Origin: Tannockella kyphosi
Lineage (GTDB): Bacteria; Bacillota_I; Bacilli_A; Erysipelotrichales; Coprobacillaceae
Assembly: GCF_021054785.1 (NCBI RefSeq)
Contig: NZ_CP088239.1
Location: forward strand, 930,001-962,000
Direction of reading: 5' to 3'
DNA length: 32,000 nucleotides
Shown here: piece after piece, positions 4,882 to 17,031 of the stretch
Layout of the letters: each line of letters starts with the position of its first letter
Position numbering within the stretch: the first letter of the stretch is position 1
The notes under the pieces: generated by a model
What the model saw: only the letters and a program-made list of their open reading frames with translations
Told to the model about the DNA's origin: nothing
Database searches by the model: none
Program-made: the position numbers and the translations under genes

Positions 4882-7398
4882 TTAGTTATTTTTAAATATA
4901 CTATCAAATGGTAAAGGTTTCGCAAAATAATATCCTTGTGAATGCAAAATATGAAACTTTTCTACTTTTTCTTGAATTTCCTTATTCTCAACATATTCAG
5001 CAACTAAATCAATCGATAACTTATCACCTAAAGAACTAATTATATCTAATAAAACTTCACTATCTTTATCTTTATCTAATTCTTTAATAATTTGTCCATC
5101 TATTTTAATAACATCCGGATGTATCTTAATAATTTCATAAAGATTTGAGTATCCAGAACCAAAATCATCGACCGCTATTTTTGCACCATAAGTTCGTATT
5201 TCTTTAATAAAATCATTTAAACTAGACATATCTTCTATATAATCTTCTTCTACAATTTCAAAAGTAATCTGAGAAGGATTTTTATGAGACGCAAGTTTCT
5301 TTATAATAAAAGTTTTCAGTTTTGATGAAGAAATATCATGTGCTGATAAATTAATATTAATACCATAATCTAATCCATTAAAATCATTTAATGCTTGATC
5401 AATCATACGAATATTTAAATCTAAATATAAACGATATTTTTTAGAAATAGGCATAAATGAATAAGGTGTATGGATATTTCCATCCATGTCTTCTAAACGC
5501 ATTAAAGCCTCGTATTTATCAATACATTTTGTTTTATTATTATATAGCCCTTGATAATAAGGAATGATTTTATCATTCGTTAAAGCATATTGAATTAATT
5601 GAATAGCATCTAATTCTGATTTTGAGGCATTACTTTGAACAGGTTGTAGTGAACTAATAATCATCCTGTTTTGTGATAATTTGTTATGTTCTAATTGTAT
5701 ATAAGCTTCTTCTAATAAAGAATCTCCCTTATCAACAACTATAAAACGTAAAAGGAAAGGTGTTGTTAATGTTTTGTTTTGATGATCATTGCATATAAAT
5801 TCCATTTTATGAACAAAATCAATAAAATCATGGGTAGAAAGTATATTTTTACCAGCCAATACAAATGTACTGTTATCAAATATATAAGGGATAATAAAAT
5901 CATTATGATCTTGAAATAAAGGAGAATATTTCATCATTTGAATGAATTGTTGAATGTTTTCAAAATATTCGTTTAAACCTAAATGAGAATGTAAAATATC
6001 AGAATTCTCAATTTTAATTAAACATATCTTATTAAACTTATTATCTTTTACATCCAATTCAAATTGAAACATATTCCCTAATCCATAAGTAGATTCTAAT
6101 AATGTTTGACTGTTATAACCAGATTCTTTATTAATAATTTGATCTAAAATAACATCATTTTCAACAGAAGAAGTACGCCCTTGTTTATTTGTTAAAAACT
6201 CAAGCAAATCCTGACTATCATCTTGAATATCATCTAGATGCTTCAAAACATCCACATCCACATCTAAATAGTTTTCTTTTTCACCGAAACCAGTTAAAAC
6301 ACAAGAACCATTTAAAAGTGTATTCGCTCCATTATCATAACCAAACTCACCTAACAAGAAAACTCCATTAACAGGATTTTTATGAAAAGTAGTTAATTCC
6401 CATTGTGCACAATTTTTTAAATATAACTTTCTAAATAAACAACTGTAACAAAATAATGTTTCCATTGAGCTATTTTTAACTAAATAAGTAGTTTCTTTTA
6501 CTTCTTCAATACATTTAGAAGGTGAAGTATAACTAATTTTAAATTTAGTTCCTTTTTCTAAACGACTAAAATACTGAGATATTTGTTGTGAATCTTCATC
6601 AAAATGGACAAAACGAATTGCACTAGGATGACTTTCTAATGATATTTGAAAGCGGACCAAAGGGTCTAATTTCGCTGTTTCTTCCCATGTTGTATAATGT
6701 TTTGTGCTTAAGAATCCTAGTTTCTCTTCTAACCATTCTCTGGCAGGAACATTTTCTATTGTAGTAATTACACGATCTTTTACACCTGTAATTGTATATG
6801 TTTTTGTAACCGGTGTATGTGAGGTATTAATACGGTGGAACGTACTAAATGTTTCTCCATAAACACCTGCACATATCAAAGCATTTGATTGATAAGTAGT
6901 ATCATCAAAAACAAAAGGAGTTGTTTTACTTTGATATAATTCTCCTGACATTCCTCCAGCAATTTGTGTTTTAATCATTGCTATGTTTAATGTTTCGATA
7001 AGTTGATGAGCGTAATCATAATATGCGCCGACAAACATTCGAAGTAATTTTGGTTGGTTATTACCCCAAAACGAAGATACTTCATTACTAATTTCTTGAT
7101 ATGTTTTATTCTCTAAAGAAATCATGGTTGTATCGAAATTACTAGATTCATACTGTTCTATACATAGTAAAGTATGTTGATCGTATTGTTTATCATGATA
7201 AATAATACCATTTACACTACTCCCTATTATTTTACTATTTGGTAATAATTCTTTTACTTTTTTAGCAAATTCGACAGCATCTGTAGGCTCTAAAGCACAC
7301 GTAAAAATTTGCACTAAGCACTGCTTAGCACTATCAATATCCTGTAAATTTTGTTCCAATAATTCAGTTGATTCAAACAAATGATGTATGACTTTCAT
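4882..7398 (-). CDS. FIST-domain / degenerate GGDEF-like / EAL-domain protein (c-di-GMP phosphodiesterase)
   Basis: C-terminal EAL signatures: YEALMRL, NINLS, FEIVEE, DDFGSGYSNL, KIDGQ, AEYVE, QGYYF. The middle region resembles a GGDEF fold, but the motif slot reads FDNSTF. The N-terminal ~400 aa is FIST-like (IGSSVNGII, AGGMSGE, LGEFGY). AGGGGGG SD. Confidence 0.8.
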   Translation of the reverse strand: MKVIHHLFESTELLEQNLQDIDSAKQCLVQIFTCALEPTDAVEFAKKVKELLPNSKIIGSSVNGIIYHDKQYDQHTLLCIEQYESSNFDTTMISLENKTYQEISNEVSSFWGNNQPKLLRMFVGAYYDYAHQLIETLNIAMIKTQIAGGMSGELYQSKTTPFVFDDTTYQSNALICAGVYGETFSTFHRINTSHTPVTKTYTITGVKDRVITTIENVPAREWLEEKLGFLSTKHYTTWEETAKLDPLVRFQISLESHPSAIRFVHFDEDSQQISQYFSRLEKGTKFKISYTSPSKCIEEVKETTYLVKNSSMETLFCYSCLFRKLYLKNCAQWELTTFHKNPVNGVFLLGEFGYDNGANTLLNGSCVLTGFGEKENYLDVDVDVLKHLDDIQDDSQDLLEFLTNKQGRTSSVENDVILDQIINKESGYNSQTLLESTYGLGNMFQFELDVKDNKFNKICLIKIENSDILHSHLGLNEYFENIQQFIQMMKYSPLFQDHNDFIIPYIFDNSTFVLAGKNILSTHDFIDFVHKMEFICNDHQNKTLTTPFLLRFIVVDKGDSLLEEAYIQLEHNKLSQNRMIISSLQPVQSNASKSELDAIQLIQYALTNDKIIPYYQGLYNNKTKCIDKYEALMRLEDMDGNIHTPYSFMPISKKYRLYLDLNIRMIDQALNDFNGLDYGININLSAHDISSSKLKTFIIKKLASHKNPSQITFEIVEEDYIEDMSSLNDFIKEIRTYGAKIAVDDFGSGYSNLYEIIKIHPDVIKIDGQIIKELDKDKDSEVLLDIISSLGDKLSIDLVAEYVENKEIQEKVEKFHILHSQGYYFAKPLPFDSIFKNN

Positions 7399-7400
7399 TT

Positions 7401-8594
7401 TTACGCCCCCCTACTTAATTTATATTCTTGTTTAAAAAGATACATTTTTTGATCACACTCGTCTAAAATTTTTTCTATACTATTTCCACATCCTGTTTCT
7501 ACTTCTTGTATCCCATAACTAATAGACATTGTATATTCTTTAGGACTAGCAGCTATAATTTCATTAAAGACAGACTGCATCTTCTGTTCCATCTCTAAAT
7601 AAGAAAGCGTAGAAATGACAACAAATTCATCGCCTCCGATTCTACATAAATACTCAGTAGTATGATCAATATGTTGGATAGTACATTTTGTTACATAATT
7701 AATATAGTAATCTCCTTGGTTATGACCAAAATTATCATTTACAATTTTTAAGTCATTAATATCAATCAAGGTTATTGAAAATGAGTCATTAACAGTTAAT
7801 CTTTTTTTAATTTCGTTAAAGCAAAAACGACGGTTATAACAACCAGTTAAAGCATCACTATAAGCAATTTGTGTTAAATTTAGTTGATTTGTTTGTTCTT
7901 TTGTGACATCTGAAACATAATGGACTAAAGCTCTTTTTCCTTCCCATAGAAAATCATAAGAACGTAAAGCATGGTAAGATTTTAAAATTTCATTATAGTA
8001 TATTGTTGTTTCCTCATTTGCTAGTGCAGAATCCATTTTAGTAAAATGGATTTGACGAAGGGAAAAAGTTTCTAGTTGATAAGCTTCCTCTTTATTATTA
8101 TATATAATAACCCCAGATTCTATATCTTCCACAACGATCCAATCACTGTGGGCATCCATGATTACTTTTAATAGATCAGTTGTTTTTTTTAAAGTGATTG
8201 CATTTTCTTTTAGTTTATTTTCTCTTTCTTCTAATTGACGAATCATTTCATTAAAAGACTCAGAAAAATCTCCTAAGAAGATAACTTTTTGAGCATAGTC
8301 CCCATTTGCAACTTGTTGTGTTTGCCAAGTTAAATGCTTCAAAACTCCATGTAATTCTTTTAAGCCACCGGTTAATAAGTTGTGTCGTCCTGGTAAAGGG
8401 GCATCTAAATTACCTTTACAAATATTGCTAGAAAACTCATTAAGTTCTTGGACACAATTCGATAAATAGAGCAATCCTTCTTGAACATTGTTGATTGTTT
8501 TGTCACAAGATACTAAATCATCTTTAGTAAGCTCTACATTTAAAAGTATTTTCTTGAGTTGTTCTAAAAGAAAATCATAATTAAACGAATCCAT
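7401..8594 (-). CDS. Diguanylate cyclase (cytoplasmic HAMP/coiled-coil plus PAS-like N-terminus, GGDEF C-terminus)
   Basis: ALTGCYNRR, DINDLKIVNDNFGHNQGD and RIGGDEFVV are all intact. The RxxD I-site slot reads HTTE. There is a 2-nt gap to the EAL gene. Confidence 0.9.
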   Translation of the reverse strand: MDSFNYDFLLEQLKKILLNVELTKDDLVSCDKTINNVQEGLLYLSNCVQELNEFSSNICKGNLDAPLPGRHNLLTGGLKELHGVLKHLTWQTQQVANGDYAQKVIFLGDFSESFNEMIRQLEERENKLKENAITLKKTTDLLKVIMDAHSDWIVVEDIESGVIIYNNKEEAYQLETFSLRQIHFTKMDSALANEETTIYYNEILKSYHALRSYDFLWEGKRALVHYVSDVTKEQTNQLNLTQIAYSDALTGCYNRRFCFNEIKKRLTVNDSFSITLIDINDLKIVNDNFGHNQGDYYINYVTKCTIQHIDHTTEYLCRIGGDEFVVISTLSYLEMEQKMQSVFNEIIAASPKEYTMSISYGIQEVETGCGNSIEKILDECDQKMYLFKQEYKLSRGA

Positions 8595-8600
8595 CGTATG

Positions 8601-9134
8601 CTATTCTACTACTTTAGCTTCGAAACGACAAACTCTAGCACCGCTTGCCCAACAATCTACTTCTGTCACAACATATTCTTTTTTTGTATATTCTTTTAAA
8701 ACACCTGCTAAAAATCCTTCATCATAGTTGCATACAGTTTCACCTGTAATTGGTAAACCAGAACAATCTAAATCTTCTCCAATTGTTAATACAGCAAATC
8801 CAGTTTCAACATCAAACTTCTCTACACGTAAAACACCAATTTTACTTTCCACCAATGTTTCTTGTAATTGAGAAATAAATTCATTAAAAGGCAAATCTAA
8901 ATTTAACATATGTTTTGCAAACTCACGACCAGCTAAATCCCCTGACTTTCTAAAAACATCAATCGCATTTTCTTTGCCATATTTTTCAATTAAAACATCT
9001 TTAATTGTAAATTGAAATAAGCGATATACATATACCGGCATTGATTCTCCTAAATTAGTACGTCCCTCTTCAATAGAGCCTATTGAATCCCAACTAAAAC
9101 GATTATCTTCTTCACTTTTTAAAAATTCCAACAT
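8601..9134 (-). CDS. V4R (4-vinyl-reductase-type) small-molecule-binding domain protein
   Basis: 177 aa with a Cys-containing C-terminal half (DCSGLP...CNYDEGFLAG...CWASGARVCRF) typical of V4R domains as I recall them. GGGGGAG SD. First gene of the operon. Confidence 0.65.
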   Translation of the reverse strand: MLEFLKSEEDNRFSWDSIGSIEEGRTNLGESMPVYVYRLFQFTIKDVLIEKYGKENAIDVFRKSGDLAGREFAKHMLNLDLPFNEFISQLQETLVESKIGVLRVEKFDVETGFAVLTIGEDLDCSGLPITGETVCNYDEGFLAGVLKEYTKKEYVVTEVDCWASGARVCRFEAKVVE

Positions 9135-9230
9135 ATGATTCTCCCCCTAATTTTAATTTATATTATAATAATTTTATCATAAAACAGCCTATAAATACTA
9201 CTTTATACATCATAAAATATAGAAATTATG

Positions 9231-9260
9231 AAAAAAAGAGAAATTATTTTAACATTTCTC
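9231..9260 (-). terminator. Probable terminator after the cyclase-like gene
   Basis: 7-bp stem gagaaat (9238-9244) / atttctc (9254-9260). On the minus strand it is followed by a T7 run (rc of 9231-9237). The stem overlaps the end of the CDS. Confidence 0.45.
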
Positions 9261-10668
9261 CCCTTTTTACATTTAAATTAATTTTATTAATTATTTGTTC
9301 ATCTAAATTGTCTATATAATCAAATAATCCATCGACATCAATAATCTTTAACAAAGGATTACTAGCAATACTCTGATAATGAACATCATTCACTTCTGCC
9401 AAATATGTATAGCCTTTAATAACATTATGTAAGCATTTTTCTACATGATCATATCGATGTAAACAAACAGGTGTTTGACTATGATAATGGTTATTAATTA
9501 AAAAAGAACAATTTAAGTTATATGTATCATCATAATATTCTTCTATCTCTCTTAAATAACCAAAACTATAATACATCTCTAATCCACCAAAGCCCCATTG
9601 ATCTTCTTGATTATTTTTACATAAAATTATTTTTAATTGTTTCTCATCCATAAAATAACATAAAAAACTACTATGTATCTTTGTAAGAGGTTTTAAATCA
9701 ATAAGCGTATTTTTATAATTTTTATGAATAATTTTTACAATTCTTTCTATTTTTTGTTGATAGCCATGTTCCTTTGTTAAATAATCAATAATATATTCTT
9801 CATAGCTTTTATAGCCTGTTTGAGAGATGTTCATTCTTGATTTCATGGAACATAAGTATTCATCAAAAACATTCTTTTTATCGCTTGTTTCTTCACTTAA
9901 AGAATCAATAAAACTAATTGTATCATCTCCATGATACATAAAGATAGGATATGGTAATTCATCCCAAACACCTTTTAATGCTTTGAAAGTAACTAAGTTT
10001 ACTTTCAAAAACATTTCTTCATAGTTTTTGCTTATAGAGATATTTAATTTTTTTTGAATATTATAATAATTTCTTAACAAAGATGCTAATGCAAATGAAA
10101 TTACTAATCTATTTTTCATACTATAACTAGAAGTTCTAAAACCAGTATCAATATCAGGCCCTATATATTCTACTTGTTTTCGGTTATCATTTATTTGATA
10201 TTCTGTATAGATATTATCTGTATAAAGACAATCATCTGATATTGTAGCAATCCATGCTGTAGCTTTAATGGAAAGCATTTTACCTGATTCAATATCACAA
10301 ATAATACCTTTATCAATTTTTTCATTTAATGTAACCATATTTTTATATACTTCATCTAAAGTATCATATACTTCATCTAGAGTACCAATATTCTTTGTAT
10401 AAATTATTTCATCCCCTAATGTTTTCCAAAATTGAAACCCACGAGAAGGACTATTAGCAAATTCACTAATAATATGACGTAAAATTTCACTAATAGCATA
10501 AGCCCATTTTCCTTTGTTTTTAGTTTTATATTTTGTTGAATTTACAATATCAAATGAAAAAAAGAAAGTTACAACTTCATCATCTTTATTATATTGAAAA
10601 TCATCCATCTCCCCTATTCTAGAAACAAGAGGTTTTAATTCGGTACTTATTTTATTGTCTATCTCCAT
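9244..10668 (-). CDS. Class III nucleotidyl-cyclase-like domain protein with an uncharacterised ~270-aa C-terminal region
   Basis: The N-terminal ~200 aa match the cyclase-homology-domain pattern: VTFFFSFDIVNST (FxDIxGFT-type, metal Asp), WKTLGDEIIY (K-x-GD, second metal Asp), and VEYIGPDIDTGFRTSSYSMKNRLVIS (dyxGxxVNxAaRl...ilvS). Start placed at the ATG at 10666-10668 (MEIDNK), with AGGTG 7 nt upstream. Confidence 0.55.
   Translation of the reverse strand: MEIDNKISTELKPLVSRIGEMDDFQYNKDDEVVTFFFSFDIVNSTKYKTKNKGKWAYAISEILRHIISEFANSPSRGFQFWKTLGDEIIYTKNIGTLDEVYDTLDEVYKNMVTLNEKIDKGIICDIESGKMLSIKATAWIATISDDCLYTDNIYTEYQINDNRKQVEYIGPDIDTGFRTSSYSMKNRLVISFALASLLRNYYNIQKKLNISISKNYEEMFLKVNLVTFKALKGVWDELPYPIFMYHGDDTISFIDSLSEETSDKKNVFDEYLCSMKSRMNISQTGYKSYEEYIIDYLTKEHGYQQKIERIVKIIHKNYKNTLIDLKPLTKIHSSFLCYFMDEKQLKIILCKNNQEDQWGFGGLEMYYSFGYLREIEEYYDDTYNLNCSFLINNHYHSQTPVCLHRYDHVEKCLHNVIKGYTYLAEVNDVHYQSIASNPLLKIIDVDGLFDYIDNLDEQIINKINLNVKRGEMLK
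10345..10386 (-). repeat. In-frame 21-bp tandem duplication inside the cyclase-like gene
   Basis: atatacttcatctaaagtatc (10345-10365) and atatacttcatctagagtacc (10366-10386) match at 19/21 positions. They encode LDEVYDT / LDEVYKN. Confidence 0.85.
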
Positions 10669-11183
10669 TTCATTACACCTAACCATTTCCCACGATTATT
10701 TGCAGCATATCTTGATACGCAAAAATAACGTGATAATTGTACGATATCAATATAATCATTAGTTGAATTCATATAAACATAATCAAGAAAATCTTTTTTT
10801 GGCATTAATAAATTATCAGCAAACTCTTGTGCTTGAAAGCTATATTCTGTAAAGCCTACTAGACTTTGATTTTCTTTGTAGTCGGTCCATTTTTCATTGT
10901 CTGTTAAATAACCCATATGTAAAAAAACATGTCCTAGCAAACAAGCGATTGCGTTATTTAAACGGGCTTGATTTTGTTTATCAGAAATATGTATTTCAAA
11001 TGTATATTCCTTATTTTCAACAACTCGAACATCACCATTCAAAGGATAATCACTTTTTAGTATTACTTTTCCTCCGATTGATTTCACGATTGGAATGATA
11101 TCGATTATTGGTATATTTATTTGATAGTAATCAATAATAATGTTACATACCTTGGTAATATCTTCTCTAGTCATTGGTAACAT
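10659..11183 (-). CDS. ImmA/IrrE (DUF955, M78-like) family protein with a degenerate metal/catalytic motif
   Basis: Family pattern: NNAIACLLGHVFLH (normally xxHELGHxxLH), EYSFQAQEFADNLLMPKKDF (E-x-x-AN-x-FA-x-x-LLMP), and a C-terminal VSRYAANNRGKWLGV. Start placed at the ATG at 11181-11183 (MLPMTRED), with AAGGAG 9 nt upstream. The track start is a TTG. Confidence 0.65.
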   Translation of the reverse strand: MLPMTREDITKVCNIIIDYYQINIPIIDIIPIVKSIGGKVILKSDYPLNGDVRVVENKEYTFEIHISDKQNQARLNNAIACLLGHVFLHMGYLTDNEKWTDYKENQSLVGFTEYSFQAQEFADNLLMPKKDFLDYVYMNSTNDYIDIVQLSRYFCVSRYAANNRGKWLGVMKWR

Positions 11184-11311
11184 AATTTCCCACTCCTTGC
11201 TTTGTTTATACAATAATTATAGCACTAACATTTAAAAAAGGTAAAGAAAATCATGAAATATTCAATGTTTTTAGATTTCTTGTTATTTTTTTAGATAAGA
11301 ATGTTTATATA

Positions 11312-11339
11312 TAAAAGAAAAACCACCAATTAGGTGGTT
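11312..11339 (-). terminator. Rho-independent terminator ending the cysD...nitroreductase transcription unit
   Basis: Stem aaccacc (11321-11327) / ggtggtt (11333-11339). On the minus strand it is followed by TTTCTTTT, directly after the stop at 11343. Confidence 0.7.
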
Positions 11340-11342
11340 AGG

Positions 11343-11849
11343 TTATTCATTAATATAGGTGATTTTATTTTCATTATATCGATCTTCATAATAATTAGCG
11401 TTTGACTTAGAAGGATATCCTATTGCAACAACACTTATTGGTTCTAAATAGTCTGGTAGTTGATACAGTTCACTAACATAAGTCATACGTTCTTTATTTG
11501 GCCACATACCACACCAAAGGGACCCTAACCCTAATGATGTAGCCTCTAGTAAGATGTTTTGAGTAGCTGCTGCTACATCGATAACAGCTGATTCAGGTTT
11601 TGTTAATTTTTGGGTGTTACTAACTAGTAAAATTGCTAGATTAGCTGTCGTTATTGCATTTGCATAAGGGTTGTATTTTGATAATTTTTCTAAGTTTTCT
11701 TTGCCTTTAATGACATAAAATTCCCATGGTTGTTGGTTTCTTGAAGAAGGTGCTTGCATTGCAGCTTTTAATAATAATTCTATTTTTTCATTCTCTACTT
11801 CTTTTTCATTAAATTGTCGTACACTACGACGATTAAAAATAGCATTCAT
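11343..11849 (-). CDS. Nitroreductase family protein
   Basis: The N-terminal FNRRSVRQF, QAPSSRNQQPWEF, and a C-terminal hydrophobic/GYP block are typical of the FMN nitroreductase fold. Confidence 0.85.
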   Translation of the reverse strand: MNAIFNRRSVRQFNEKEVENEKIELLLKAAMQAPSSRNQQPWEFYVIKGKENLEKLSKYNPYANAITTANLAILLVSNTQKLTKPESAVIDVAAATQNILLEATSLGLGSLWCGMWPNKERMTYVSELYQLPDYLEPISVVAIGYPSKSNANYYEDRYNENKITYINE

Positions 11850-11854
11850 TTTAT

Positions 11855-12508
11855 TTAAATCCTTTCTATGATATCCTTTTTATCAAATCTTGATTTAGGT
11901 ACATTTACATTTGGATCATTTGGCGAAGCATAACCTATTGCAACAACAAAACAAGATGTAAATCCTTTTTCATTTAGATTCAATAGGCTGTCTAAGCCAT
12001 ATTTATCGATGCCTTCAATACAAATAGAATCTAGTCCTAACATTGCGACCCCTACTAAAAAAGAGCCTAAATTTAAAAATAACTGATTTTCAGTCCAATG
12101 CTGAAAATCACGTTCTTTATAAATATGCATGTCACTAAACTGACACCTACTTTGATGAGCTAAAGACATTGCTTCATGATTTATAAACCTTCCATCACTA
12201 GCTTCTTTTTGTAATAATTTAACTAAATAATCTTCTTCTAGCCTAGCTTTACATGAAAATACAACCGTAATACAAGAATCTAAAATTTTTGCTACATTCG
12301 TTGGATACTCTTGTTTACATGCAGTAGCAATTTTTTCTTTGCCAATCTGTGTATTAGCAATAACAAAATGCCAAGGTTGTAAATTTGTAGAAGATGGTGC
12401 TAACTGTAATAAACTTTCAACTGCTAACAATTGTTCATTGGTTAATTTTCTATTTGGTTCAAATTGTTTACATGAATAACGATTTTCCATTAAATCAATA
12501 ATATCCAT
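11855..12508 (-). CDS. Oxygen-insensitive NAD(P)H nitroreductase-like protein (NfsB/FRase-like)
   Basis: RYSCKQFEP, LAPSSTNLQPWHF, AIGY. AAGGAG SD. Confidence 0.8.
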   Translation of the reverse strand: MDIIDLMENRYSCKQFEPNRKLTNEQLLAVESLLQLAPSSTNLQPWHFVIANTQIGKEKIATACKQEYPTNVAKILDSCITVVFSCKARLEEDYLVKLLQKEASDGRFINHEAMSLAHQSRCQFSDMHIYKERDFQHWTENQLFLNLGSFLVGVAMLGLDSICIEGIDKYGLDSLLNLNEKGFTSCFVVAIGYASPNDPNVNVPKSRFDKKDIIERI

Positions 12509-12559
12509 AACGTCTCCTTTATAAATCTAACTCTTAATCTTATCTAACAATTCCTGATT

Positions 12560-13303
12560 TTATACTTCTTTTACATCACTAACTGACCAAGTTTTTATAT
12601 TAAGACTCACAATTCCGCTACCACAATACTCACAAAACTTGTCACCTAAGTTTTTAACAGGTGCTCCACAATTAGGACAATTCAAGGCTAAAGCATCACT
12701 ATATTCAAACTCTGCTAAATCGCGATCTTGAATATAGATAACATCTATATTATATCTTGTTTGAAAACAAACAGATTTATTACCAGAAACTATTTCTTTA
12801 TTATTGTCTTCTACATAATGATAATATTGGATAGAAGCTTGAAATGTAATCTTACATTTTCCTTTTTGTTTCGTATAATTATTTAACTGACAATCATGGA
12901 TTAACATATTTGTAAAATGTTCTTTATATTGTTTCGATGAAAGCATTGCTAAATGCAATTCTAATTGATGAATCAAATCACTATTTACATAATCCGGTAA
13001 ATCAATATGATTATTATTGATGGATAATAAATAAGCCGACAATACATGTTCTGCTCTTTCTCTCATTTCATCATAATGAAAATCAGGAAAATCTTCCATA
13101 ATATTTGGTAAATATAATCTTGTAACACCTGCTATTGACTTAGGTGTTGATACATACTCTTGTTCAATTTTTTGAAAACCTTGTAACAAAGATTTTGTCC
13201 CAAAAGCAGTCCTTGAAAACTCTTCTATTTTAGTTTTTATATAAAAAACTAATCCACCTATCAAACAAACTAAAATAATTAATAAAAATAATGTAATTTG
13301 CAT
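12560..13303 (-). CDS. Membrane-anchored protein with a C-terminal zinc ribbon (function unknown)
   Basis: N-terminal TM (ITLFLLIILVCLIGGLVFYI) and a C-terminal CPNCGAPV-x10-CEYCGS. AGAGGTGA SD. Confidence 0.5.
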   Translation of the reverse strand: MQITLFLLIILVCLIGGLVFYIKTKIEEFSRTAFGTKSLLQGFQKIEQEYVSTPKSIAGVTRLYLPNIMEDFPDFHYDEMRERAEHVLSAYLLSINNNHIDLPDYVNSDLIHQLELHLAMLSSKQYKEHFTNMLIHDCQLNNYTKQKGKCKITFQASIQYYHYVEDNNKEIVSGNKSVCFQTRYNIDVIYIQDRDLAEFEYSDALALNCPNCGAPVKNLGDKFCEYCGSGIVSLNIKTWSVSDVKEV

Positions 13304-13391
13304 AATCTCACCTCTTATTAATAAAAATTATAGCATAAAACTTTAAAAAAATAAGCTCTTAATAAAAATTAATTCTATAATATAAAAACTA

Positions 13392-14297
13392 TTATTGATT
13401 TCCAATAATAGTTTTCCATTTTTCTTCATTACCATAACCAAATTGTCTCATTAATTTACCACAGTGCTTTTCCATGATTAAAGCATCTTCTTTATTCCAT
13501 AAGTCCCATGATGTACTTGGTTGTTTGGAATCAATTTTTTTATCAATTAATTCTGGTATAAAAGTAGCAGATATTTTTTGATAAGAAAAATCGGTAGCAA
13601 AGTTTAATAATTCTTCGAAATTTCTTTTTTTATCTTCTGTTAAAAATATATCTTCATATTTAAATACTTGAAAATTATCTTTATTTTTCATTTCTTCTAA
13701 TACGTAAGTATTTAACTTATTATAGAACCAACAATACTTTTCAAACTTAGAAAAGCTTGTCCAATCTTTTAGATAAGGATCCTCTTTAAAACAATTAGGT
13801 TGTAAACTAATATTACGAAAAAAGAACTCAATTGGTCCATACAAGCTATATTCTGTTTTATTTAATGCAGAATAAATCCATGTCCTAGGATCCCGTATAA
13901 TAAAGACAAAACGTGAATCTTGATAAATTTCATCAAGTAACCCTAATAAGCCATAAATATGACCAGAAGAATACACAACAACATTTTCCTTATATAACGC
14001 ATCAACTTGATTATTAATTTTTCGTGCATTTTTGCAAGCTTCCTCTTTTGAAATAGTACCAGCAATATAATCTCTACTTAGTTTATACATAGAATGATTA
14101 TTCATCCCTTGACCAAATGACATATGAAATAAACCATAATCTTTTATTTGTGATAAAAGTTGTTTTGGCTTTGAAAACCAGGGTGTTCCTGGTTCATGTA
14201 AAGAAACTGAATCTTCAATCATCATATTTAAGTATTTAGCAAAGAACTGCGTAGCAGTTCTTCCTGTTGAACATATAAATATTCTTTTTTTAGACAT
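13392..14297 (-). CDS. PAPS-dependent sulfotransferase family protein
   Basis: The N-terminal IFICSTGRTATQFF resembles the 5'-phosphosulfate-binding loop, and IIRDPRTWIYS resembles the 3'-phosphate-binding motif. It lies immediately downstream of cysNC (2-nt gap). AAGGAG SD. Confidence 0.65.
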   Translation of the reverse strand: MSKKRIFICSTGRTATQFFAKYLNMMIEDSVSLHEPGTPWFSKPKQLLSQIKDYGLFHMSFGQGMNNHSMYKLSRDYIAGTISKEEACKNARKINNQVDALYKENVVVYSSGHIYGLLGLLDEIYQDSRFVFIIRDPRTWIYSALNKTEYSLYGPIEFFFRNISLQPNCFKEDPYLKDWTSFSKFEKYCWFYNKLNTYVLEEMKNKDNFQVFKYEDIFLTEDKKRNFEELLNFATDFSYQKISATFIPELIDKKIDSKQPSTSWDLWNKEDALIMEKHCGKLMRQFGYGNEEKWKTIIGNQ

Positions 14298-14299
14298 AA

Positions 14300-16132
14300 T
14301 TACTCCTTCTTTACTATTAGTTTATCGATTATTTCAATAGCAATATCATTTGCACTAATAATTTCTGTATCAAATTCAAATTCTGGATTTGTTGGAATTT
14401 CATATGGATTTTGAATACCTGTAAAATTAGTTATCTCATTTAATCTTGCTTTTTGATATAAGCCTTTGACATCTCTTCTTTCACATTCTTCAATAGAAGT
14501 GGATAAGTAAACTTCATGAAAACAATCACCTATTGCTTTTCTAGCTTTTTGTCTATCTTTTTTATAAGGAGAAATTAAAGAAGTAATTACAATAAGTCCT
14601 GCATCATTCATAAGTTTAGCAACTTCAAAAACTCGCCTTATGTTTTCGACACGATCTGATTCATCAAAAGATAAATCTTTATTTAGACCATGACGTAAAT
14701 TATCTCCATCTAATAAAATAGTATGTTTTCCCATTGCTATTAGATGTTTTTCTAATGCATTAGCAACTGTTGTCTTACCGGCACCACTTAAGCCAGTCAA
14801 CCAAATAGTTAATGGTTCTTGATGTTTTTGATTCGAACGAACTTCCCTGGTAATATCAATATCTTGCCAAATAATATTATCCGTTCTTTTTAATTCTTTT
14901 ATAATAGTCCCGCACGCAGAAGTTTGATGAGAAATACGGTCAATTAGGATAAAACTCCCGATACTTTCTGTTTTTGAGAAAAGGTCTAATGTTATTTGGT
15001 TATTTAACATGATTGTTACTTCTGCAATATCATTCATAAAGACTTTTCTTGCTGATAAGAATTTTCCTGTTTGTAAATCAATACAATGATTAATGCTCAT
15101 TATTGTAGCAGGTATTAATTTAGTTCCACATTTAAATAGATAATTTTGACCAACACCTAATTCATGATGATCCATCCACAATATTTTTGCTTTTAAAAGG
15201 TCAGTAGTTATTAATTTAGTATTATTTGAAATAATATCACCTCTTGCAATATCAATTTCTTTATCCAAACAAACAGTCACACCTTGTCCTTTTAAAGCAC
15301 TATCTACATCTTTACTTCCTATCAAAATACGATTTACTGTAGCATGATTTCGATTTGGATAAATAGTAATATTTTGTCCCACAGTTAAATTACCAGCTTC
15401 TAATTGTCCTTGATAACCCCTAAAAGTATTATCTGGTCTACAAACTCGTTGTACTGGTAATAAGAAAGTATCATTGGCTCCCTGATCATGAATAACAACA
15501 GTTTCTAAATATTCAAAAAGTGTTTTCCCTTTATACCAAATTGTATTTTTAGATCTTTTTGTAATATTATCACCTTTGGTCGCTGATACTGGAATAGCAT
15601 GAATTGTTTCAACTTCAAGATTCGCACAATGTTGTGTAAAATCTCTTACAATCATTTCAAATCTTTCTTGATCATAAGCAATTAAGTCCATTTTGTTTGC
15701 TGCTAATATAAAATGCTTAATACCCATTAAATTACAAATATTAATATGTCGTAAAGTTTGTGGTAAAACTCCCCTAGAAGCATCTATTAGAATAATTGCT
15801 AAATCAGCAAATGATGCACCAACTGCCATATTTCTAGTATATTGTTCGTGTCCTGGACAATCAGCAACAATAAAATTTCTTTTTTCAGTAGCAAAATATC
15901 GATATGCAACATCGATTGTTATTCCTTGTTCTCTTTCTACCATTAATCCATCAAGTAATAAAGAATAATCAATATCTTCATTTTCACTAGATATTTTACT
16001 TGCTAATTCAATTGCTTGTTGTTGATCAGTAAAAATCATTTTTGCATCATAAAGCATATGCCCAATTAATGTAGATTTCCCATCATCAACAGATCCACAT
16101 GTAATAAACTTTAGTATATCTTTTTGTGCCAT
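14300..16132 (-). CDS. cysNC: Bifunctional sulfate adenylyltransferase subunit 1 / adenylylsulfate kinase (CysN-CysC fusion, NodQ-like)
   Basis: GTPase motifs GSVDDGKST, DCPGHEQY and NKMD in the N-terminal ~430 aa. The C-terminal APS-kinase part carries the P-loop LTGLSGAGKTT. The ATG overlaps the cysD stop (TAATG). Confidence 0.9.
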   Translation of the reverse strand: MAQKDILKFITCGSVDDGKSTLIGHMLYDAKMIFTDQQQAIELASKISSENEDIDYSLLLDGLMVEREQGITIDVAYRYFATEKRNFIVADCPGHEQYTRNMAVGASFADLAIILIDASRGVLPQTLRHINICNLMGIKHFILAANKMDLIAYDQERFEMIVRDFTQHCANLEVETIHAIPVSATKGDNITKRSKNTIWYKGKTLFEYLETVVIHDQGANDTFLLPVQRVCRPDNTFRGYQGQLEAGNLTVGQNITIYPNRNHATVNRILIGSKDVDSALKGQGVTVCLDKEIDIARGDIISNNTKLITTDLLKAKILWMDHHELGVGQNYLFKCGTKLIPATIMSINHCIDLQTGKFLSARKVFMNDIAEVTIMLNNQITLDLFSKTESIGSFILIDRISHQTSACGTIIKELKRTDNIIWQDIDITREVRSNQKHQEPLTIWLTGLSGAGKTTVANALEKHLIAMGKHTILLDGDNLRHGLNKDLSFDESDRVENIRRVFEVAKLMNDAGLIVITSLISPYKKDRQKARKAIGDCFHEVYLSTSIEECERRDVKGLYQKARLNEITNFTGIQNPYEIPTNPEFEFDTEIISANDIAIEIIDKLIVKKE

Positions 16133-17031
16133 TAGAAATATCCCTCTCTTTTTCGTCTTTCCATACTTCCAACTTCTTCACTATCAATAACACGTGTCGA
16201 TCTTTCAGAACAAACAGCACCTAAAGTTTCATTAATGATTTCATTAAGTGTTGAAGCATGTGAAACACAACCTCCTGTTAATGGATAGCACCCAAGTGTT
16301 CGAAAGCGAATACTTCCTACCTTTAGTTCTTCGTTAGGTAATAATTTCATTCGGTCATCATCAACACAAATAATATTACCTTCTCTTTCTACATAAGGTC
16401 TTTCTTTAGCAAAGTATAATGGTACAATTTCAATATTTTCTCTAGCAATATATTGCCAAATATCTTTTTCTGTCCAATTGGATAAAGGAAATACCCTCAA
16501 GCTTTCTCCTTGATTTATTTCCATGTTATATAATTTCCACATTTCAGGTCTTTGATTTTGTGGGTTCCACGTATGTTGAGCACTACGATGTGAGATAATA
16601 CGTTCTTTTGCTCTAGATTTTTCTTCATCTCTACGACCACCACATATAGCAGCATCAAAACCATAATGATCTAACCCTTTTTTTAATGCTTCTGTTTTCA
16701 TGATATCTGTATATGACTTACCATGATCAAAGGGATTGATATTTTTAGATACACCTTCTTCGTTACGATACGTATACATTTTGATACCTAATTCATTTGC
16801 TCTTTTATCTTTGAATGAAATCATTTCTTTAAATTTCCACGTTGTGTCAATATGTAAAAAAGGAAATGGTGGTTTTTCAGGATAAAACGCTTTTAATGCC
16901 AAGTGTAACATTACACTACTATCCTTACCTATAGAATATAACATTGCAGGATTTTGACATTCTGACACTACTTCTCTAATAATATAAATCGCTTCTGCTT
17001 CTAATTGATCCAAATATGTTAATTTTTCCAC
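16132..17031 (-). CDS. cysD: Sulfate adenylyltransferase subunit 2
   Basis: PP-loop SIGKDSSV. A strong family-typical C-terminus ([12 protein letters not shown]...SERSTRVID...[12 protein letters not shown]). GTG start at 17029-17031 with AGGGGGA 8 nt upstream. Confidence 0.9.

Follow-up and report, generated by a model that had tools for sequence, protein, structure and literature searches.

Pycsar systems, as defined in PMC11224242, are built on a class III cyclase that makes a cyclic mononucleotide (cNMP), which in turn gates the membrane effector PycTM. In Pycsar-2 the cyclase bears a bihelical domain at its N-terminus and an AGS-C sensor at its C-terminus, and has a transmembrane effector only (bioRxiv 10.64898/2026.08.12.744502). 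The characterised M78 relatives ImmA, IrrE and CapP are stress-activated site-specific proteases, and one CapP/CapH-like pair adjoins a gene cluster for a predicted guanylate cyclase and a cNMP-binding TIR protein (CapH/CapP preprint). The locus considered here can be set against both groups. It consists of two overlapping genes in a stretch of 32,000 nucleotides from Tannockella kyphosi (NZ_CP088239.1, positions 930,001 to 962,000); the whole stretch that was analysed is called the window and is numbered from its first letter. Gene 1 encodes an M78/ImmA/IrrE-like protein, and gene 2 a class III cyclase followed by a Nudix-fold domain. The pair is a derived, reduced member of a cassette family comprising an M78 peptidase, a class III cyclase-Nudix fusion and, usually, PycTM; in the window the protease site is dead and there is no effector in cis.

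The family, phage-defence-like in its make-up, is large and apparently undescribed. A preliminary description of the pair, made from the sequence alone, had not recognised its architecture as that of a described system, and the searchable literature agrees: no paper tying M78 or Nudix to Pycsar, or to the phage genes discussed below, was found in the literature searched, which did not include two papers of key interest or one supplementary table set.

Gene 1: a predicted pseudo-peptidase

The gene 1 product scores above the cut-off of Pfam Peptidase_M78 (PF06114; 26.1 bits against 22), has capP as its best PADLOC match (2.4e-12), with further matches to the RmrA models, matches PHROG 87, 'metallo-protease' (9e-8), and shows a likeness to the RmrA and spr1629 'repressor/antitoxin' family. 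Of the features that mark the ImmA/IrrE group (Peptidase_M78, COG2856) it has the profile match, and lacks both the HExxH site with its downstream Glu and a cognate helix-turn-helix (HTH) substrate. Column statistics were taken from an alignment with 62 partner proteins of related loci (52 main-clade, 10 outgroup). H81, E82, H85 and E115 are carried by 52/52 main-clade and 9-10/10 outgroup sequences; at these positions of HExxH and the downstream Glu the window has C81, L82, H85 and S115. The ImmA/IrrE-type pseudo-protease with a C-L-L-G-H motif (codons 10943-10929) that the preliminary description had claimed is confirmed by the profile matches, and the damage extends beyond that motif to the third zinc ligand (E115S). 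Having lost its catalytic Glu along with two of three zinc ligands, the product, as read from its sequence, cannot act as a metallopeptidase.

The family invariants are F77, T78, H81, E82, G84, H85, L86-G91, W99, R108, E115, F121, A122 and an LMP motif, with N119 and E120 almost invariant. Among them the window reads N77, A78, C81, L82, L108, S115 and Q119, and it retains many non-catalytic family positions (H89-M-G-Y92, W99, F121-A122, L126-M-P128, R164-G-K166 and W173).

Gene 2: a class III cyclase with a Nudix-fold domain

No Pfam (Guanylate_cyc included), NCBIfam or PADLOC model matched the gene 2 product, which belongs to PHROGs 18024 (1e-42) and 6174 (2.6e-30), both labelled 'unknown function'. 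An AlphaFold2 (AF2) model built from a 74-sequence alignment, with a mean predicted local distance difference test (pLDDT) score of 89.5, was combined with Foldseek searches to define a helix at the N-terminus, then a class III cyclase homology domain, a helical linker and finally a Nudix-fold domain. The best Foldseek match of the model was CyaC (1wc5; E 1.8e-9, template-modelling score 0.73), and the top 50 matches were all class III adenylyl/guanylyl cyclases; in BFVD the full-length model matched viral Nudix proteins and viral cyclases separately. A class III cyclase N-terminus had been proposed earlier from the motifs FDIVNST (D40), LGDE (D86) and DIDTGFR (D174, R178). The motifs are present and the fold is CyaC-like, so that the structural comparison, which might have spoken against a cyclase, returned the class III fold instead. 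Invariant in 65/65 aligned full-length family members, the window included, are D40 (FSFDIVNS), K48, G85, D86, E87, W139, G170, D174 and R178, while position 82 of the pattern K/R82-x-L-G85-D86-E87 alternates between K and R (K82 in the window). In the family pattern G170-x-D-I-D174-x-G-F-R178, D174 occupies the site of the transition-state Asn of canonical cyclases. Every family-invariant catalytic residue of the cyclase is intact in the window, and the catalytic residues do not vary among the eight members of the window's clade that were aligned.

The remaining ~270 residues, which the preliminary description left unassigned and suggested to be an effector or processing domain, are now accounted for as the helical linker, which in its own right matched no family or fold, and a Nudix fold with a degenerate box; the suggested role finds no support. 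Modelled alone (AF2), the Nudix-fold domain has a pLDDT of 91.3, and its top 50 Foldseek matches in the PDB are all Nudix-fold proteins (best 3id9, E 6.5e-6), the matches including the non-catalytic sensors NrtR and AraR and the MutY C-terminal domain. A search of the PDB with the gene 2 family profile gave weak MutT matches. The model thus has the alpha/beta/alpha fold of the Nudix superfamily. At the Nudix box, GX5EX7REUXEEXGU, the window reads G-G-L-E-M-Y-Y-S-F-G-Y-L-R-E-I-E-E-Y-Y-D-D-T-Y-N-L, which does not fit, and the equivalents of MutT E53/E57 are Y and T. The main-clade region, W-E-F-G-C-A-K...E-E-Y-x-x-D-F-G-I, is acidic only at the MutT E53/E57 equivalents, each of which carries an acidic residue in 41/49 main-clade sequences. 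Seven residues that do not vary in either the main clade or the outgroup have been exchanged in the window (R352N, E359G, C362G, K364E, D382T, R395Y and P402C), and several of these replacements are common to its clade, that is, conserved and non-random. Judging by these residues, the domain is probably not a hydrolase. Its action as a phosphodiesterase on the cyclase product was kept as a remote option only: the box is degenerate here, and the Nudix enzymes that a preprint reports as active on cyclic nucleotides cleave 2',3'-cNMP, not 3',5'-cNMP.

The cassette family

Searched with the family profile, a set of 1.84 billion cluster representatives (50%-identity clusters) yielded 2,190 representatives of the gene 2 family at E<=1e-3 and 545 at E<=1e-30; no informative name was found among the members examined. 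Of the 79 species-representative genomes in which neighbourhoods were counted, 67 have an M78 gene directly upstream of the cyclase gene, overlapping it or within ~25 nt (overlap sizes in related loci being taken from longest-open-reading-frame calls), and the pairing in the window is accordingly not fortuitous. A PycTM-like gene lies directly downstream of the cyclase in 48/79, and both partners are present in 46/79. The downstream protein matches Pfam PycTM (PF18967), PADLOC PycTM (4e-26) and the CBASS 2TM-effector models (2.5e-35). No conserved HTH gene was found upstream of related cassettes. A hidden HTH partner was considered and rejected: the divergent small open reading frames (ORFs) upstream of ten main-clade cassettes share no HTH, one being HicB-like and one having a transposase-type HTH. 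Fusions between M78 and cyclase, which might have served as evidence of interaction, were also sought among the longer members (P0154, P0146 and others), and these lack an M78 domain.

Canonical cassettes occur in gut Clostridia, many of them human-gut Lachnospiraceae, in temperate phages of Clostridioides difficile and in defence islands. The cassette is present on 37 viral contigs, and in the C. difficile temperate phages phiC2, phiCD27, phiCDHM19, CDKM9 and phiCD508 it lies between the endolysin/holin genes and the integrase. The holin/endolysin-integrase interval is a usual site for accessory genes of temperate phages. In phiCDHM19 (L129, NC_028996.1, 4504-7169) the genes are annotated as 'metallo-protease', a 528-residue 'putative Nudix hydrolase' and 'DUF5706'; the DUF5706 product is a PycTM-family protein whose gene is convergently oriented, and a HicB-like gene is nearby. 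Outside Firmicutes, two-gene forms that lack PycTM are seen in Ignavibacteriaceae, Treponema bryantii and Polyangiaceae (L069, 7600-13073; L076, 8114-12988; L081, 1638-5171). Their neighbours are restriction enzymes of type IIG/type I, along with an RmrA-like HTH-M78 protein, a PDC-S70-like protein and further defence candidates. Recurrence of the pair in defence islands, a question that the preliminary description had raised, is thus seen for its relatives, in prophages and beside restriction systems.

In a midpoint-rooted neighbour-joining tree the window falls in a monophyletic clade with L088, L005, L008, L012, L003, L009 and L013, from fish-gut-type Eubacteriales metagenome-assembled genomes and Chakrabartyella. 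PycTM is found in no member of this clade. Its M78 motifs read CLLGH, SLIGH, QELGF, QEIGH and QSLGI, HEIGH being kept only in L007 and L014; outside the clade the motif is HE[LI]GH, with L080 as the sole exception, and HELGH or HEIGH stands at the motif columns of 66/73 family partners. On these alignments the dead protease is a derived trait, peculiar to the small clade that holds the window, and not one of the family at large. In three clade members (L003, L009 and L013), themselves intact, the M78 gene is gone altogether, and these also lack the ~20-residue N-terminal helix of gene 2 that is present in all M78-associated members; the helix may be a docking or cleavage site for the M78 partner. 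One of these M78-less homologues, in Chakrabartyella piscis (CP092441.1, L003/L011, 3050-8090), stands within a tightly spaced SpoIIE-SpoIIE-cyclase-STAS-HATPase_c_2 partner-switching operon, and at a second locus of that genome, L007, an intact HEIGH M78 gene lies beside a frameshifted cyclase.

Organisation of the locus

The gene pair is a real two-gene operon (Table 1). The overlap between the reading frames that the preliminary description reported was recovered, with 10 nt common to both, and would imply translational coupling. The longest-ORF listing places the starts further upstream, at TTG 11213 for gene 1 and ATG 10686 for gene 2. The shorter starts in Table 1 appear better supported because of Shine-Dalgarno-like sequences at fitting spacing (AAGGAG and AGGTG) and because of protein lengths: gene 1 homologues have 170-176 residues, and a metagenome protein 98% identical to the gene 2 product is also annotated at 474 residues. 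The pair is bounded by two terminators, again as first described. That of the nitroreductase operon sets the 5' boundary; the hairpin at the other end folds at -11.5 kcal/mol (z = -3.3), with 0/200 shuffles folding equally well, and was missed by the consensus terminator scan because it has too few G-C pairs. The promoter-like site, just 5' of gene 1, has the top score in the region, with 10/12 consensus matches. In the ORF listing there is no HTH gene in or beside the cassette and no ORF between the upstream terminator and gene 1; an HTH partner is therefore missing here, as had been stated, and none is conserved upstream in related loci.

Table 1. Features of the gene pair and its borders, in window coordinates.
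Feature	Position	Strand	Details
Intrinsic terminator of the upstream nitroreductase operon	11321..11339	minus	Terminator scan: 7-bp stem, 4 G-C pairs, then T-run
Promoter-like site	11216..11245	minus	TTTACC, 18-nt spacer, TATAAT with TG extension; consensus match only
Gene 1	10659..11183	minus	ATG 11183, TAG 10659-10661; 174-residue M78/ImmA/IrrE-like predicted pseudo-peptidase
Degenerate zinc motif	10929..10943	minus	TGT TTG CTA GGA CAT = C-L-L-G-H, read from the sequence
Gene 1 stop / gene 2 start overlap	10659..10668	minus	10 nt, ATGGAGATAG
Gene 2	9244..10668	minus	ATG 10666-10668, TAA 9244-9246; 474 residues
N-terminal helix	10591..10647	minus	Gene 2 residues 8-26; lower pLDDT (54-71) in the AF2 model
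Class III cyclase homology domain	9919..10581	minus	Gene 2 residues ~30-250; Foldseek and invariant residues
Helical linker	9694..9918	minus	Gene 2 residues ~251-325; helices 253-324 in the AF2 model
Nudix-fold domain	9247..9693	minus	Gene 2 residues ~326-474; no canonical Nudix box
Probable terminator of the pair	9222..9268	minus	AT-rich 14-bp hairpin and U-run, overlapping the gene 2 stop

Sequence variation and selection

Compared with L088, the window has a gene 1 of 50% identity, without indels, and a gene 2 of 51% identity; at this ~50% amino-acid divergence both ORFs are intact, of equal length and still overlapping. The Nei-Gojobori ratios of nonsynonymous to synonymous substitution (dN/dS) come to 0.33 (gene 1) and 0.35 (gene 2), values that, with dS near saturation, are if anything overestimates. 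These comparisons indicate that both genes are under purifying selection and that the pair is maintained over the long term.

Variation within the population was read from nine metagenome contigs, whose identity to the window is 99.1-99.96%. Gene 1 does not vary in any of the nine. Gene 2 varies in four samples (L130, L132, L134 and L135), which hold a 1-bp deletion at 9593 (frameshift at G359), stop codons in place of E374 (9549) and Q458 (9297), and S38T (10557), which alters a family-invariant Ser. L135 also has two changes just upstream of the promoter-like site, at 11286 and 11296, and the window itself has a private A142T (10245) in gene 2; the 5-8 kb of flanking genes in the near-identical contigs contain no private mutations. 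Each of the three truncations removes part of the Nudix-fold domain and leaves the cyclase domain intact. Since stop codons are rare among random substitutions, three disruptive events among so few changes point to the loss of the Nudix-fold domain being selected for or at least tolerated. From such natural truncation alleles we infer that populations of the present day can dispense with gene 2 or bear a cost from it. A second haplotype (L085-L087, L130, L131 and L133) differs at 20-24 sites, all within 8667-10245, a tract of 1.6 kb that covers gene 2 residues 142-472 and most of the V4R gene; 6341-8666 and 10246-16849 are identical. The segment looks like a tract imported by recombination.

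Genomic setting

The genes that flank the cassette vary among loci of the window's clade (PTA, UvrC, EamA, GGDEF with a solute-binding protein, RecR, transaldolase), with no conserved synteny. Because the flanks differ from locus to locus, the pair seems to move as a unit and not to be inherited in conserved synteny, and the uniform core-genome context that would have told against a conflict module, according to the preliminary description, is not what was found. In the population the pair lies at the same place in 11/11 contigs that carry the neighbouring nitroreductase.

Upstream of the cassette (11343-16132, minus strand) are two tandem nitroreductases, a zinc-ribbon protein, a weakly sulfotransferase-like protein and a CysN/CysC fusion, and a homologous contig extends into a 3'-phosphoadenosine-5'-phosphosulfate reductase gene, a sulfate-assimilation context, not a defence island. 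Directly downstream on the same strand (4882-9134, minus) are stand-alone V4R, GGDEF and FIST-EAL genes, which look like a cyclic di-GMP module; the gene next to the pair encodes the soluble V4R protein. In L008, too, the cassette is followed by a GGDEF gene, and in L014 by a gene of equal size. A functional link to the GGDEF neighbour was considered and is treated as coincidence, the GGDEF proteins of the window and L008 being 24% identical, mostly within the GGDEF domain. The G+C content of gene 2, 24.8%, is the lowest nearby (whole window 29.0%, flanking genes 27-32%). Flanking repeats or insertion scars were sought around the cassette, with AT-rich chance matches as the only result, and the window contains no Rfam families or tRNAs.

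With the PycTM profile no PycTM-like ORF was found in the 32-kb window; for a TIR-type effector the whole stretch was not searched. The conflict module with a cyclase that had first been suggested is thus upheld by the Pycsar link of the relatives, with PycTM in 48/79, and is not upheld by the window copy itself, which stands without a cis effector among housekeeping and cyclic di-GMP genes.

Proposed function and alternatives

The overlap of the peptidase gene with the cyclase gene points to the cyclase, not a repressor, as the peptidase target, and the cyclase is also the most likely target because no repressor is available. In the canonical cassette an infection or stress cue would activate the M78 peptidase, which would act on the cyclase translated together with it, probably at the N-terminal helix; once released, the cyclase would make a cyclic mononucleotide that opens the PycTM pore, in a Pycsar-style abortive infection. 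The Nudix-fold domain would most likely be a nucleotide-binding sensor or regulator like NrtR or AraR, and would not hydrolyse. That the family is an unrecognised three-component branch of cNMP immunity, in which a repressor-less protease senses infection and switches on the cyclase-Nudix protein so that PycTM opens, and in which the window protease is the retained regulatory pseudo-enzyme of an effector-less cyclase, is put forward tentatively, as a possibility that we do not expect to hold in all its parts. For the window taken by itself a narrower reading is somewhat favoured: the pseudo-peptidase is kept as a binding partner of the cyclase, whose signal is received by something encoded elsewhere, or by nothing at all. 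The locus would then encode a cyclic-nucleotide synthase that a pseudo-enzyme regulates by stoichiometric binding instead of cleavage, with the output passing to a receptor encoded elsewhere, if any.

Several points weigh against these proposals. The correlation between M78 and the N-terminal helix stands on a single evolutionary event. Kinship to PycC stands on fold and gene neighbourhood only. The midpoint-rooted tree fits PycTM having been lost from the window's clade or never having been present in it. No receptor or effector was found in the 32-kb window, and the output of the window copy is therefore conjecture. Finally, the three independent truncations of gene 2 in near-identical strains fit ongoing loss of function. 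This last point leads to the view that the pair is a decaying remnant of a three-gene abortive-infection cassette, left after the effector had gone; the protease site and Nudix signature would have drifted, and the genes would no longer be of use. Such decay would explain the lost M78 catalytic residues, the replaced family-invariant Nudix residues, the want of PycTM in cis, the G359 frameshift and the E374 and Q458 stops in different near-identical strains, the frameshifted Chakrabartyella copy (L007) and the low G+C content of gene 2 (24.8% against 29%). It is hard to square with ORFs that remain intact, equally long and overlapping after ~50% divergence from L088, a dN/dS of ~0.33 for both genes, cyclase catalytic residues invariant in eight clade members, Nudix replacements that the clade conserves and does not scatter at random, and a gene 1 identical in every sampled strain; we consider simple decay unlikely.

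The same truncations bear on two further explanations. Disruptive population mutations fall only in gene 2, never in gene 1, as expected if the pair were a self-contained defence or toxin-antitoxin-like unit in which the cyclase-Nudix protein is toxic, for instance through depletion of NTPs or some other nucleotide, its antidote or inhibitor is the M78-like protein, and no separate effector is required. Two-gene forms without PycTM in defence islands beside restriction systems, the placing of the small partner first, overlapping the larger gene as in antitoxin-toxin order, the likeness of gene 1 to RmrA and the spr1629 'repressor/antitoxin' family, and the acidic MutT E53/E57 equivalents of the main-clade Nudix (each 41/49) are all compatible with this. 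However, all three truncations spare the cyclase domain, the Nudix box is non-canonical family-wide and almost erased in the window, and the intact M78-less members L003, L009 and L013 are ill-suited to an essential antidote, though they also lack the N-terminal helix; we give this explanation rather little credence. Recurrent truncation is likewise unexpected in a housekeeping regulator, and the idea that the clade's cyclase has been recruited to ordinary signalling with no link to phage conflict is improbable. It draws on the M78-less C. piscis homologue inside its SpoIIE-SpoIIE-cyclase-STAS-HATPase_c_2 operon, on the PTA, UvrC, RecR and transaldolase genes that flank loci of the clade, on the V4R, GGDEF and FIST-EAL genes beside the window copy, and on the constant position of the pair in 11/11 contigs with the neighbouring nitroreductase; but contexts vary between loci without conserved synteny, as expected of a mobile cassette, and the GGDEF neighbours of the window and L008 are only 24% identical.

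If the protease-gated cyclase proposed for the family is true, Pycsar-type signalling would gain a protease-gated layer, and the ImmA/IrrE peptidases would have a target that is not an HTH repressor. A likely role would also be suggested for genes labelled hypothetical or 'putative Nudix hydrolase' in well-studied C. difficile phages and in gut Clostridia by the thousand, genes assigned to no system by PADLOC 2.0 models. The window's clade offers a natural experiment in a defence module without its suicide effector, with the pseudo-enzyme conserved, the sensor-like domain remodelled and the cyclase chemistry kept. The window copy alone is a modest curiosity, yet it leads to a large, unannotated and experimentally tractable family.

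Comparison with described systems

The Nudix-fold domain shares with those of NrtR, AraR and the MutY C-terminus a fold without the catalytic box, fused to an unrelated functional domain; in those proteins the partner is a DNA-binding or glycosylase domain, whereas in gene 2 it is a cyclase. Main-clade Nudix-like domains match the PADLOC profile PDC-S07 (1e-9 to 3e-8). That profile stands for a single-gene candidate, a stand-alone protein of ~135 residues without a cyclase, and the window protein does not match it.

CapP/CapH, ImmA/ImmR and IrrE/DdrO are protease-repressor pairs that regulate CBASS and other defence systems. Gene 1 belongs with them as an M78 peptidase-family protein whose best PADLOC match is capP. 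It departs from all three in that there is no HTH substrate gene, the gene overlaps that of a cyclase, and the active site is destroyed in the window. With regard to the CapH/CapP module in particular, the capP profile matches gene 1 and no CapH-like gene is present.

With Pycsar the family shares a class III cyclase with two metal Asp residues, a PycTM gene directly downstream in most relatives, the order of signal generator then membrane effector, and carriage in prophages and defence islands. Of the defining features, the class III cyclase with its Asp pair and Arg is present in the window, and the adjacent cNMP-activated effector (PycTM or PycTIR) is absent there, PycTM being present in 48/79 related loci. 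Pycsar is further defined by the making of cCMP or cUMP and by protection from phage. The family differs from Pycsar by the C-terminal Nudix fold, the N-terminal helix and the translationally coupled upstream M78 gene in 85% of loci; the window in addition lacks the effector. PADLOC PycC models matched neither the window protein (E<=1) nor five relatives (E<=0.1). Because sequence models fail to detect the cyclase, the family is Pycsar-like in organisation and not a demonstrated member of the PycC family.

The layout of Pycsar-2 is the same: a helical extension at the N-terminus, the cyclase, an accessory domain at the C-terminus, and a transmembrane effector as the exclusive partner. AGS-C was considered as the identity of the gene 2 C-terminal domain and excluded: AGS-C is Ig-like, the domain here has a Nudix fold, and there is no Pfam AGS-C match. 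The survey of Pycsar-2 mentions no M78 partner for any subclade (bioRxiv 10.64898/2026.08.12.744502). From Pycsar-1, Pycsar-2, Pycsar-3, Pycsar-like-4 (E2/JAB) and Pucsar, as these are described, the family is set apart by its Nudix C-terminus together with the coupled M78 gene.

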